Source: an uncultured Nitrososphaerales archaeon (lineage in GTDB: Archaea > Thermoproteota > Nitrososphaeria > Nitrososphaerales > Nitrososphaeraceae). Taken from it: a DNA stretch of 64,000 nucleotides. The notes beneath the pieces are model-generated. The model was not told the DNA's origin. It saw only the letters and a list, made by a program, of their open reading frames with translations, and searched no databases. Where the stretch lies: the NCBI GenBank assembly GCA_963695855.1, contig CAVOHZ010000010.1, positions 1,568,001 to 1,632,000 on the forward strand. Direction: 5' to 3'. The position numbers and the translations under genes are program-made. This document shows positions 28,907 to 33,149 of this stretch, one piece after another (position 1 is the stretch's first letter; the number at the start of each line of letters is the position of its first letter).

Positions 28907-30130
28907 TTGTTTATAATGGTTGTTGGTATTGAGGTCGGACAGTTCATCCAAGATTTTTCAGTTATTATGATTATTGCATCTGTCATGGCGTTCATCTCAT
29001 TTAAATTTAAACAACCGCTAGTTATTGGTTATATCCTTGCAGGAATGATCATCGGTCCACATACTCCACCATTTAGTTTAATATTAAATCCAGATATTTT
29101 GAATTTGTTTGCAGAAATGGGTATAATTCTTTTGTTATTTGTTGTTGGTATGGAATTTCCTATAGACAAACTACGCAAAATTGGAAAGAAAGCATTAATG
29201 ATAGCAACATCAGAAGCATTTGGAACATTTGTGATAGGTTTTTCTGTAAGTTTCTTTCTACTAAATTTTTCATTTTTCGATTCAGCATTTGTTGCACTTG
29301 CAATTTCAGTTACTAGTACCATCATCATTATGAAGGTATTAGAAGAGCTAGATATAATCAAGGAAGAGGCATCCTATATAGTTCTGGGAGTAGCGGTAAT
29401 GGAAGACATCTTAATTATCTCAATGTTGGCAGTATTACAATCTGTTAGTTCGTCATCAGGGGATCTGTCAATTGTTGATATTTTAATATCTATTAGTATA
29501 ACAATTGCATTTATTTTTGGAGTCTTGTTTTTAGGATCAAAAACTATACCAAAATTTATCAATTTTATTGGCAAATTCAATCAACATGAGGTTCTGATAC
29601 TAGTGGTTCTAGGAGTGGCATTTGGGTTATCCTATATATCTTATCAAATAGGAATCTCAGTAGCAACAGGTGCATTCTTTGCTGGTGTACTGATAGCAGA
29701 ATCAAAAGTTCATGCAGTTACAAGAATTTTAGCAACTCCAATTAGAGATATGTTTGGAGCAATATTTTTTGTATCTGTTGGTGCACTAATGGACATGTCG
29801 TTATTAGTGGTATTTATTATTCCAGCTTCAATCTTGGTGATAGTTTCAATTTCTGCCAAATTTCTTACGGTATTTCTCTCATCAAAATCGCAACGATTTA
29901 GTTCAGCAACTTCTATGAAGGCAGCTTTTGGTCTATCTTCATCAGGAGGAGAACTAGCACTTGTTGTAGCAAAAGGTGGAGCAGATACAGGTCTTACAAG
30001 TGCATTTCTTCTTCCAATGATAGGAGCAATGACCATAATTACAACATTTATCTCGCCTTATATGATTAAACTAGGTTGGAAACTACCAGATAAGATACTA
30101 TCATCTAAAAATGAAGAAAAAGATAGATAA
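28907..30130 (+). CDS. CPA2/Kef-type cation:proton antiporter (paralog of 4191-5462)
   Basis: QDFSVIM, GYILAGMIIGPHTPPFSLI, TSTII, VMEDIL, GAFFAG. Confidence 0.9.
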   Translation: MFIMVVGIEVGQFIQDFSVIMIIASVMAFISFKFKQPLVIGYILAGMIIGPHTPPFSLILNPDILNLFAEMGIILLLFVVGMEFPIDKLRKIGKKALMIATSEAFGTFVIGFSVSFFLLNFSFFDSAFVALAISVTSTIIIMKVLEELDIIKEEASYIVLGVAVMEDILIISMLAVLQSVSSSSGDLSIVDILISISITIAFIFGVLFLGSKTIPKFINFIGKFNQHEVLILVVLGVAFGLSYISYQIGISVATGAFFAGVLIAESKVHAVTRILATPIRDMFGAIFFVSVGALMDMSLLVVFIIPASILVIVSISAKFLTVFLSSKSQRFSSATSMKAAFGLSSSGGELALVVAKGGADTGLTSAFLLPMIGAMTIITTFISPYMIKLGWKLPDKILSSKNEEKDR

Positions 30131-30171
30131 ATAAAAAATTAATATTAAATCATATGTCAGTATTAATTATC

Positions 30172-30543
30172 TTAGTCCTTTAGTAAATCTAGAATACTTT
30201 CATGTTCACCTATCAGAATTCCTTTTCTTTCAAATAATTGCACTACACATACTGTAAATCCTACATGTGCACAACTATCGTCTTTACAATATGTACAGAA
30301 TGGAACACCATCATTGATGGATATTATCACGTCAGAATGTAGAGTATTATCATTTATAATAGATTCTTTATCTTTTTCATATCTTTTAAGTATCATATGA
30401 TTAACAGGAGAGTTTTTATTTTCTGAATTTAACCATTCCACAAAAGCAAATTCTCCATAATCCAAATTAGAAATATGAATTTTGTTTGCTTGCTTCTCTG
30501 ATGTTATTGCGTTTTTCAAATTTTTATCGATATCTTCGAACAT
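30172..30543 (-). CDS. Hypothetical protein with C-terminal CxxC...CxH putative Zn site
   Basis: PFCTYCKDDSCAHVGF. Confidence 0.6.
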   Translation of the reverse strand: MFEDIDKNLKNAITSEKQANKIHISNLDYGEFAFVEWLNSENKNSPVNHMILKRYEKDKESIINDNTLHSDVIISINDGVPFCTYCKDDSCAHVGFTVCVVQLFERKGILIGEHESILDLLKD

Positions 30544-30718
30544 TTTATGATCTTTTTTTATTACTCCTACTGCTTTGAATAGGCCTCATTTATAGTAATT
30601 CTCACTATCAACTAAATAAAATATAAAGATTTGGGATATATTCTATACGGCTCTGTAGGTGAAATGTTCGACAGAGCTAACATTCAAGAAGAAAGCCACT
30701 ACCAATACTCTTGCAAAT

Positions 30719-31747
30719 ATGTATGCGGCATTAGATTTAGGACAGAAAAACATTCAGGCAGTATTGAAAAATAAAGATGGTAAGATTATAAAGGAAAATA
30801 AAATACAGCGTAATACCAAAACAATACTAGAATTTCTTGATAATAGTAACAAGAATCATAATAATATTGATATTGTAATGGAGTCTGGTTACAACTATCA
30901 ATATCTATATGATCTTTTACAAGATGAAGGTTATAATGTAAAAGTAGCACATCCACTAATGGTCAAGGCAATAGCATATGCTAAAGTCAAGACAGATAAA
31001 GTAGATGCTAGAATATTAGCAGATCTACTAAGAATGGATATGATACCAGAATGTTATATACCTAATAAAGATATAAGAAATTTACGAGATCTAGTTAGAC
31101 GCAGATACTATTTTGTCAGTATTCGAACAATGTTCAAAAACAAAGCACATGTTGAGATGAGTAAAAGATGGTTAGATGCTAATGTGACTAATAATATAAC
31201 AACAACAATGATTAAAAATGATCCATTTTCTAAAAAAGGAAAATGTCATTTACGTTCACTGGGAATACATGCATTAGATGATTGCCTTGATACCATAGAT
31301 TTTCTAGATAGAAAAATAAAAGAGTTGGATACAGAAATAAAGAAATTGGCAATAGAAGATAAATACTCTAAACATCTTATGACAATTCCAGGTATATCTT
31401 ACTATGCAGCTCTTCTAATATCAAGCGAGATAGCAGATATTAACAGGTTTCCAGACTATGAACATCTGTGTTCTTATGCTAGATTAGTACCTGGTACATA
31501 TCAATCTGGAAATACATCATTCTCAAAAACAGACAAAAAACAAGGGAGCAAAATGCTAAACTGGATTATGGTACAGTGTACTCATACACATGTACGTTAT
31601 TGCCAATCATCGATAACAGTACATTACAACAAGATAAAGAATAGAAAGAGAAATAACAAAATTGCTATAATTGCAGCAGCAAGAAAATTAATGCGTGTGA
31701 TATATGTTATGCTAAAGGAAGATCGTCCCTTTAGACTGGATGAATAA
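30719..31747 (+). CDS. IS110-family DEDD recombinase/transposase
   Basis: ALDLG, VMESG, KTDKVDA (DEDD); TIPGI and SYARLVPGTYQSG with catalytic Ser; ATG at 30719. Confidence 0.95.
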   Translation: MYAALDLGQKNIQAVLKNKDGKIIKENKIQRNTKTILEFLDNSNKNHNNIDIVMESGYNYQYLYDLLQDEGYNVKVAHPLMVKAIAYAKVKTDKVDARILADLLRMDMIPECYIPNKDIRNLRDLVRRRYYFVSIRTMFKNKAHVEMSKRWLDANVTNNITTTMIKNDPFSKKGKCHLRSLGIHALDDCLDTIDFLDRKIKELDTEIKKLAIEDKYSKHLMTIPGISYYAALLISSEIADINRFPDYEHLCSYARLVPGTYQSGNTSFSKTDKKQGSKMLNWIMVQCTHTHVRYCQSSITVHYNKIKNRKRNNKIAIIAAARKLMRVIYVMLKEDRPFRLDE

Positions 31748-31759
31748 TAATATAGTATA

Positions 31760-31893
31760 GGACCTCTTGGTTTCTTGCATCGTCATATTGTTATTATTAT
31801 ATGATAAGTATGATGGATGCCATCTGTAGGTTAGGTCTGGCTACTACTAGCGCAAAGCCACGGTGCACTATTGGTGCGTATGGGAGAATGCTA
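31760..31893 (+). ncRNA. Predicted bridge/seek RNA of the IS110 element
   Basis: Two stem-loops with internal loops carrying TGGTTTCT and TCTGTAG (target matches) and ATGGGAG (match to the element's right end); ends approximate. Confidence 0.8.
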
Positions 31894-31979
31894 TTATTCA
31901 TCAGTTAATCATATTAGGAACGAGTATTATATGAACATGGGAGAAACCATCATAGCTAGCATCATTCTACCATTAATTA

Positions 31980-32888
31980 TTGAATAAACAACAATCAAAA
32001 TATGTTAGATTAGCAGATCAACTATTACGTATTCTCAAACATTGCAGAATTCCATTATATATGCATAGAAAGAGCAATCACATTTACACAGTATGGCAAC
32101 ACATAGTACTTGTTACAATAAGAAGACAGTATGAAGGTAAGAGTTATCGAATGTTTACAGACTGGCTTGTTGAAGCATACTATTTGAGGTTGTTTCTCCA
32201 GTTGTCCAAGATACCACATTATACAACATTACAGAAATTCACTGATAGAATCAATATAGTGTTATTAGAAAGGATAATCTCATCTTTTATTCTTTTTACA
32301 GGTACAAGATACATATTTGCTGGAATAGATTCAACTGGATTCAAGGTAACACATGCATCAGAATACTATACAGATAGAGCCAAATTGAGAAAGAAATATG
32401 CTAAATTATCTATTGGCGCAGATGTTCTAAAGCAAATAATCTGTAACATCAAGGTAAGACGAGCTCCAACACGACATGATAACATAGACTTCAAGCCGAT
32501 TGTGACAAGAATATCAAAAATAAAATCATTATCTGTAGTTGTTGCAGATAAAGCATATGACAGCGAAGATAACCATGTACTTGTAATAGAGAAATTACAT
32601 GGCTTGAGTATCATGCCTCCAAGATATGAAGGTGTACCAGTATGGAAGACTCATGGCAGATACAGAAAGGGAATGAAACGTGGATACAACAAGATTCTGT
32701 ACAACCAGCGTAACAAAGATGAAACTATTGTATCAGTCATAAAGAGGTTATTTGGGGAACATATTACATCCAGGCTGATAAGAATGCAGAACAGGGAACT
32801 GACTTTGAGATGTATAGCATACAATGTTCACAGAATGGTGAAGTTGGTTGTTATGGTGATGGTTTCTACACAGCCATTCTATACATAA
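31980..32888 (+). CDS. IS5-family DDE transposase
   Basis: PHYTTLQKF, GIDSTG, VADKAYDS, YNQRNKDET...IKRLFGE. Confidence 0.9.
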   Translation: MNKQQSKYVRLADQLLRILKHCRIPLYMHRKSNHIYTVWQHIVLVTIRRQYEGKSYRMFTDWLVEAYYLRLFLQLSKIPHYTTLQKFTDRINIVLLERIISSFILFTGTRYIFAGIDSTGFKVTHASEYYTDRAKLRKKYAKLSIGADVLKQIICNIKVRRAPTRHDNIDFKPIVTRISKIKSLSVVVADKAYDSEDNHVLVIEKLHGLSIMPPRYEGVPVWKTHGRYRKGMKRGYNKILYNQRNKDETIVSVIKRLFGEHITSRLIRMQNRELTLRCIAYNVHRMVKLVVMVMVSTQPFYT

Positions 32889-33149
32889 TCTTTTTATACT
32901 TCCGTTTTTAAACACCTTCACTTTTTAAATTATCTAATATTTTTAATGTTAACATATTAGAGGATGATACTTTATTTATAGAATTTAAGAAATACTCATA
33001 TTTTTTGGTATCTAATGATTGTTTTATTAATATTGTGTAATAAGATGGGACATATTTAAAATTATGAGAAACTATTTAATAGCAATATAATTGTCTCAAC
33101 TTTCCAAATAATATTGGTTTTGATAATAGTAATAGAAGATCTCCTATTG

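Follow-up and report, generated by a model that had tools for sequence, protein, structure and literature searches.

An IS110-family insertion sequence of IS1111-type layout in an archaeon of the Nitrososphaeraceae, with a candidate guide RNA in its 3' non-coding end

The locus and its features

An intact IS110-family insertion sequence of 1285 bp occupies positions 30659–31943 of the window (i.e., of the whole stretch of 64,000 nucleotides analysed) and is itself inserted into an IS5-family element. The features of the locus are the following.

30640..30648 (left) and 32876–32884 (right), no strand: 9-bp target-site duplication of the IS5-family element, ATTCTATAC, the same 9 bases standing outside both IS5 ends
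30649..30658, + strand: outer 10 bp of the IS5 left inverted repeat, GGCTCTGTAG, parted from the rest of IS5 by the insertion
30659..31943, + strand: IS110-family insertion sequence, IS1111-type layout, bounded by means of three copies, identical junctions, and empty sites
30659..30718, + strand: left end, 60 nt, with the subterminal repeat ATGTTC (30664–69) and the conserved AAAGCCAC (30692–99)
30719..31747, + strand: DEDD recombinase gene, 342 aa (PF01548, PF02371, NF033542; alignment with IS621/ISCro4 chains)
31748..31943, + strand: 3' non-coding end, 196 nt, candidate seekRNA/bridge-RNA gene, directly 3' of the recombinase stop codon
31933..31943, + strand: right terminus GAACATGGGAG, with the subterminal repeat GAACAT (31933–38) and the AG core copy (31942–43)
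31944..32875, + strand: rest of the IS5-family element, beginning with the right target half AAACCA (31944–49)

In the window, the left junction is TCTGTAG (30652–58) followed by GTGAAATG (from 30659), and the right junction is ATGGGAG (31937–43) followed by AAACCA (from 31944). The genome holds three near-identical copies (99–100% identity), all with the same junctions, GGCTCTGTAG running into GTGAAATG on the left and CATGGGAG into AAACCATCATAGC on the right; and three empty sites, in which GGC(T/C)CTGTAG is followed without interruption by AAACCATCATAGC. As the junctions are common to the three copies and the empty sites are continuous across them, the element is delimited as 30659–31943, and the ends that the initial annotation had inferred are independently borne out. 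The dinucleotide AG is all that the end of the left flank and the right end of the element have in common, and constitutes the core. The insertion has the same orientation in all three copies; there are no terminal inverted repeats and no long target duplication, while the core is 2 nt long and insertion is both site- and orientation-specific, as in elements of the IS110 family. The subterminal repeat ATGTTC/GAACAT comprises 6 bp, each arm starting 5 nt from its tip.

The host is a soil ammonia-oxidising archaeon of the Nitrososphaeraceae: for its rRNA operon, the SSU and LSU models of archaea give the best matches, and the closest relatives of the recombinase in named records come from genomes of Nitrososphaeraceae and Nitrososphaerales. 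The GC content of the genome is 31%. The initial description of an intact archaeal element is supported. Two further IS110-family elements, present in two copies each, were seen in the same genome (L023–L026; G000:C10:287645-291009, C8:48622-49617, C10:929543-930538), one of them with a 14-bp, ATGTAAAAGTCTCT-like subterminal repeat; at 36–37% identity, both pairs (L023/L024 and L025/L026) are too distant for alignment of the non-coding end, and were set aside.

The recombinase

The start codon was set at ATG 30719 rather than at GTG 30659; model positions 1–342 of NF033542 align from residue 2 of the resulting protein. The protein matches PF01548 (DEDD_Tnp_IS110, the RuvC-like N-terminal domain) with 85.3 bits (cut-off 29), PF02371 (Transposase_20, the C-terminal domain) with 66.5 bits (cut-off 21.3), and the NCBIfam family NF033542, "IS110 family RNA-guided transposase", with 218.3 bits (cut-off 140); hence, RNA guidance is already in the name of the protein family. 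In alignments with the IS621 and ISCro4 chains, the motifs LDLG, vmESG, KTDkVDA, and tyqSG fall on their counterparts, and we take the D, E, D, D residues and the serine of the C-terminal SG to be catalytic.

The target site within an IS5-family element

The insertion target, TCTGT-AG-AAACCA (13 nt), lies inside the left inverted repeat of the IS5-family element, and its initial reading is confirmed. The outer repeat segment GGCTCTGTAG, which includes TCTGT, the left half of the target, and the AG core (30657–58), is kept at all three occupied sites and runs straight into AAACCATCATAGC at the empty ones. Without the insertion the IS5-family element measures 942 bp; its transposase ORF spans 31980–32888 (NCBIfam NF033579, 154.8 bits), and its right inverted repeat ends at 32875.

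Throughout the genome, the exact 13-mer TCTGTAGAAACCA is confined to IS5 left repeats, two of which are exact and empty, three split by the element, and one empty with a mismatch. Occupancy is thus 3/6 for left repeats and 0/6 for right repeats, each of the latter having one mismatch; elsewhere, none of the one-mismatch sites listed in the genome is occupied. Seen from the side of the victim, three of the six IS5 copies in the genome are split 10 bp inside the left inverted repeat by the IS110-family element, and these copies are probably immobilised; one insertion sequence here splits the inverted repeat of another.

Structure of the 3' non-coding end

The stem-loops and guide segments assigned to the non-coding end are listed below.

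31760..31838, + strand: stem-loop 1, basal stem 31761–65/31833–37, upper stem GCATC 31777–81/GATGC 31816–20
31768..31775, + strand: 5' target guide TGGTTTCT, reverse complement of AG+AAACCA; predicted pairing with the top strand
31823..31829, + strand: 3' target guide TCTGTAG, identical to the left flank with the core; predicted pairing with the bottom strand
31848..31893, + strand: stem-loop 2, outer stem TAGCG 31848–52/TGCTA 31889–93, inner stem TGCAC 31864–68/GTGCG 31874–78
31880..31886, + strand: candidate donor guide ATGGGAG, equal to the right end of the element plus core

The structure was derived comparatively, using RNAalifold (13 sequences) and a count of pairs (17 sequences). Both support four helices, the basal and upper stems of stem-loop 1 and the outer and inner stems of stem-loop 2. 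The loop between the two stems of stem-loop 1 is the target-binding loop, while the upper stem carries a variable extension; the internal loop of stem-loop 2 is formed by 31853–63 and 31879–88. In the comparative structure, loop 1 measures 11 by 12 nt and loop 2, 10 by 10 nt. Pairing is retained in 93.5% of 339 cells (17 sequences), compared to 20–47% with the 3' partner slid, and the upper hairpin of stem-loop 1, which varies from 16 to 47 nt, folds in 16 of the 17 variants despite their differing sequences. Three stem pairs are changed on both sides, and the inner stem of stem-loop 2 shows a double change from A–U to G–C in 2/17 sequences; since the majority of paired positions show no change at all, covariation lends the stems modest support.

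The fold of 31748–31943 as a single sequence is no better than that of shuffles (z = 0.05), and the minimum-free-energy structure has a different global fold; the comparative structure was preferred. The stems of the two hairpins are, nevertheless, kept in 17 relatives. The inverted repeat I1 (31768–88 with 31929–49, 81% over 21 nt) was rejected as a structural feature: its matches beyond the 5' guide are specific to the hairpin extension of the copy in the window, and do not exceed other chance pairs in strength.

Scanning of 29500–33000 against Rfam 15 (E up to 10) gave no relevant match, and Rfam 15 may hold no IS1111-type model; the scan returned two weak snoRNA-like chance matches, both outside the non-coding end. 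A weak match to the C/D-box-like RF01516, at 29879–29947 on the minus strand (26 bits, gathering score 75, E 0.032), is antisense within the ORF 28907–30130 and is probably due to chance.

Guide segments and their match to the target

For IS110/IS1111 elements, guides made of RNA have been known since 2024 (PMC11187229, PMC11208160). In the element considered here, the internal loop between stems 31761–65/31833–37 and 31777–81/31816–20 holds both target guides. As stated by the initial annotation, the two strands of this loop fit opposite strands of the target in matches of 8 and 7 nt that overlap on the AG core, and all motifs lie exactly at the positions it gave: ggacct at 31760–65, TGGTTTCT at 31768–75, TCTGTAG at 31823–29, aggtct at 31833–38, and ATGGGAG at 31880–86. 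The complement of the top strand precedes the match to the bottom strand; IS1111-type seekRNAs, which are encoded downstream of tnp, have their two matches in this order as well (Siddiquee et al. 2024, PMC11187229).

To assess chance, anchored matches were counted in dinucleotide shuffles (n = 20000) of the non-coding end, its last 12 nt excluded. A match of equal length arose in 89/20000 shuffles for core plus right flank in reverse complement (8 nt), in 429/20000 for left flank plus core (7 nt), and in 368/20000 for right end plus core (ATGGGAG, 7 nt).

The element sequence is present in RNA libraries of close relatives, where DNA carry-over is possible: contigs assembled from four soil metatranscriptome runs (X1, X8–X10) are 90–99% alike to the element. 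A contig from X1 covers 30649–31859, i.e., the recombinase gene and stem-loop 1; one from X9 covers 31697–31886; another from X1 bridges the right junction (31832–32014). These contigs are compatible with co-transcription of the recombinase gene and stem-loop 1; stretches left uncovered in X8–X10 speak neither for nor against expression.

That the guide acts as RNA we infer from the protein family; by sequence alone, an RNA guide is indistinguishable from a DNA one, and the single-stranded DNA of the element end could be the guide, with no RNA involved, as in IS200/IS605. Such a guide is most unlikely, given that the RNA guides of this enzyme family co-purify with the enzyme and are required, as reported in PMC11187229 and PMC11208160; that a conserved hairpin scaffold holds the segments, 115–175 nt into the element and away from the cleavage sites; and that contigs from the RNA libraries cover the guide region.

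Covariation of guides and flanks among relatives

Relatives were collected by a protein search and by a motif search of 238 genomes of the same family, the latter matching in 9 genomes; a scan of one metagenome added 8 contigs. Together, the searches yielded 26 loci with the conserved second stem-loop, 17 of them with a readable 5' guide and right junction. Here, eight guides are fully complementary to core plus right flank (8/8), as is that of L104 if the junction is placed at the AG two bases to the right of its aberrant CATGGGTG; two pair at 7/8 with one additional G–U, two at 7/8, and, more weakly, one at 6 with one G–U and one at 5 with two G–U. The 3' guide could be compared with left flank plus core at nine loci with a left end, and matches 7/7 at seven and 6/7 at two of them. 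The left flanks of two loci (L078, L108) were not used: both are fragments with no left end found.

The 5' guides of the remaining two loci, L102 and L079, do not fit the right flank (3/8 and 2/8). Both are without left end and recombinase gene, and may be read as chimeras or recombinant fragments, given a distal right end almost the same as in L100. They are located at 713 kb and 742 kb of G073:C1, inside a 40-kb stretch dense in insertion sequences, and in each of them loop 1 belongs to one element type, the distal right end and the right flank to another, as if related elements had recombined.

As many loci are kin or copies of one element, the independent evidence amounts to five or six target types rather than to the locus counts. 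Both flanks are known for five types, TCTGT-AG-AAACCA, TCAGT-AG-AAACCA, GGTTA-AG-TTAACA, TAATT-AG-GCAACA, and TTGAC-AG-AACCTA. Over these, cognate guide–target pairs match at 53/55 variable positions, and the cognate assignment alone reaches this total among all permutations (1/120); non-cognate pairs match at far fewer positions, except where the targets themselves are alike. A sixth variant, in G022, has the right flank AAATCA and a compensating guide, TGATTTCT; its left junction is on another contig, and the pairing of the two junctions is assumed. Covariation of loops with flanks among homologs, suggested initially as a check, is thus observed. Natural retargeting between relatives is also reported for IS1111-type seekRNAs (PMC11187229).

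These data bear on whether the recombinase itself reads the IS5 inverted repeat by protein–DNA contacts, the loop matches being chance similarities or relics of a captured target. Most relatives of the lineage do sit in similar IS5-like ends, so that shared ancestry could mimic specificity, and the single matches are short (7–8 nt). Nevertheless, the matches follow the flanks into the unrelated sites GGTTA-AG-TTAACA, TAATT-AG-GCAACA, and TTGAC-AG-AACCTA; single-base changes are compensated (AAACCA to AAATCA, TCTGT to TCAGT); the cognate score is reached by 1 of 120 permutations; and the two halves are separated, one of them inverted, on two strands of one loop, unlike a captured copy. Target reading by the protein with accidental or relict loop matches is, therefore, very improbable.

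A second subfamily (L046, L047, L049, L050, L051, L065), with about 40% protein identity and a different 3' non-coding end, contains a segment AGCTAAC, AGCCTAAC, or AGTTAAC followed by TGTGG; this segment varies in step with the bases immediately beyond the left subterminal repeat TATGTGAAC, which suggests the same guide principle.

The donor side and the left end

The segment ATGGGAG is on the 3' strand of loop 2, placed as far from the stems as the 3' target guide is in loop 1; by identity and position it is plausible as a donor guide. Both the segment and the right terminus are invariant in all intact relatives, hence the donor pairing is without covariation support; in the degenerate copies L079, L078, L090, L092, and L098, the counterpart of ATGGGAG and the right end have diverged without compensation.

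For the left end, the longest candidate in the non-coding end for a guide complementary to core plus left end is 4 nt (ACCT), as found in 4924/20000 shuffles; since such a match is not above chance, a fourth guide is unsupported, and three of the four segments expected for a bridge RNA are recognisable. Of this expected guide, the reverse complement of AG+GTGAAAT, nothing was seen beyond ACCT at 31762–65; CCTC/ACCT beside the basal stem does not covary with the ends of relatives, and the 5' strand of loop 2 (AAAGCCACGG) pairs with GTG at most. This 5' strand, AAAGCCAC(G/A)G, is invariant in relatives. Recognition of the left end is either left to the protein, acting on the subterminal repeats, or based on a pairing too short or irregular to be seen.

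Two side observations concern short motifs near the ends. The sequence AAAGCCAC occurs twice in the same sense, in the left end (30692–30699, some 34 nt inward of the tip) and within loop 2, on its 5' strand (31854–31861); both copies are conserved, and the left ends of L097, L095, L104, and L112 read AAAGCCACTAC. At 31925–31933, 10 nt from the right tip, stands TATTATAT, not conserved in relatives, that could be an archaeal TATA box reading across the circle junction or outward into the integrated IS5.

The function of stem-loop 2 may, alternatively, be structural: the RNA would be a target-only seekRNA, with loop 1 directing insertion and, via the flanks, excision as well. Stem-loop 2 would then be only a scaffold that binds the protein, and the recombinase would find the ends by their subterminal repeats. 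According to PMC11187229, an 82-nt ISEc11 seekRNA with target matches only sufficed, and the donor flanks had to match. The missing left-end guide, the presence of the 6-bp subterminal repeat, and the invariance of ATGGGAG and of the opposite strand AAAGCCAC, as expected of a protein-binding site, point in the same direction. On the other hand, ATGGGAG is identical over 7 nt to the right end plus core, and its placement relative to the stems, which parallels the 3' target guide, is what one would see in a donor-binding loop. On balance, we consider the target-only seekRNA an appreciable possibility, albeit the less likely one, and prefer ATGGGAG as a donor guide.

A miniature derivative

The locus L104 (G073:C1, about 738.1–738.5 kb, oriented positions 1256–1574) is a 319-bp derivative, single-copy in its genome, that retains the left end and the whole guide-RNA region without the recombinase gene. 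It sits between ATTGACAG and AACCTA, both matching its own loop strands, and has the right terminus CATGGGTGAG in place of CATGGGAG. A candidate for its empty site, L120, was dismissed, as it shares the right flank only. The derivative suggests miniature elements that may carry their own address and borrow the enzyme in trans. The broader idea of an archaeal lineage with a three-guide RNA (two segments for the target and one for the right end), a left end read by the protein via the subterminal repeat, and a portable guide module is doubtful, and is put forward tentatively.

Interpretation and comparison with known systems

The best explanation as a whole, with a probability of roughly 0.85, is an RNA-guided IS110-family element of IS1111-type layout in the Nitrososphaeraceae, 30659–31943 being an active or recently active insertion sequence. 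Under this explanation, the 3' non-coding end would be transcribed, probably jointly with the recombinase gene, into an RNA predicted from the fold conserved in relatives to form two stem-loops, each with an internal loop. The strands of loop 1 would jointly specify TCTGT-AG-AAACCA, as their observed match and covariation with the flanks show, and in this genome the site is present in the IS5-family left inverted repeat only. By analogy to IS621 and ISEc11, the RNA-bound DEDD recombinase would exchange strands at the AG core between the site and a circular junction of the element; AUGGGAG in loop 2, equal to right end plus core, probably holds the donor junction, given its position and identity, while recognition of the left end may rest on the short subterminal repeats.

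The initial interpretation, a guide-bearing archaeal element, is largely supported. As the mechanism is already known from bacteria, the element is a well-supported further example rather than a new mechanism. Our literature search found experimental work on bacterial elements only, and no paper characterising an archaeal guide RNA of the IS110 family or an IS110-family element of Nitrososphaera, although supplementary tables may list such elements. The IS1111 family is stated to be abundant in bacteria and archaea, with enzymes of 330–350 aa (PMC11187229); the preprint of Vaysset et al. gives a count of 662 archaeal IS110 recombinases and proposes that Nop5 and the C/D-box RNPs descend from IS110 recombinases; bridge RNAs are also being mined on a large scale (bioRxiv 10.64898/2026.10.21.760802). 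The present element offers a clean, internally controlled archaeal example of RNA-guided recombination, with occupied and empty sites in one genome and retargeted relatives. It might be of use as a compact recombinase–RNA pair for genetics in ammonia-oxidising archaea, as a test case for end recognition by IS1111-type elements, and as a living archaeal comparator for the descent proposed by Vaysset et al.

Assignment to the IS1111 type, by layout, guide order, and enzyme length, appears largely supported. Similar to the IS1111 seekRNA elements ISEc11, ISPa11, and ISKpn4, the element has a DEDD recombinase of about 340 aa (here, 342 aa); a long non-coding region downstream of tnp (196 nt) and a short left end (60 nt); two segments that match opposite target strands, overlap at the insertion point, and follow in the same order; subterminal inverted repeats; and natural retargeting among relatives. 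Unlike them, it has an archaeal host and a loop 2 with a match to the right end; its subterminal repeat, at 6 bp, is just under the range of 7–17 bp stated for IS1111 elements (PMC11187229).

As in the bridge RNA of IS621, there are two stem-loops, each with an internal loop, whose strands fit opposite DNA strands and include the 2-nt core, and the recombinase aligns with that of IS621 (structure entry 8wt6 and related ones), the D, E, D, D and SG positions being kept. In IS621, however, the RNA is encoded in the left end, and the 5' strand of a loop pairs with the bottom DNA strand and the 3' strand with the top one, whereas the bridge RNAs of the IS1111 group are located in the right end (Durrant et al. 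2024, PMC11208160). Here, the RNA gene is at the 3' rather than the 5' end and the order of guides in the loop is reversed; furthermore, the core is AG on the tnp strand, three of four guide segments are recognisable, and protein similarity is low (E about 4e-13). Finally, site- and orientation-specific insertion is shared with known elements that target the terminal inverted repeat of another mobile element; the victim here is an archaeal IS5-family element, entered at its left repeat only (3/6 vs. 0/6).
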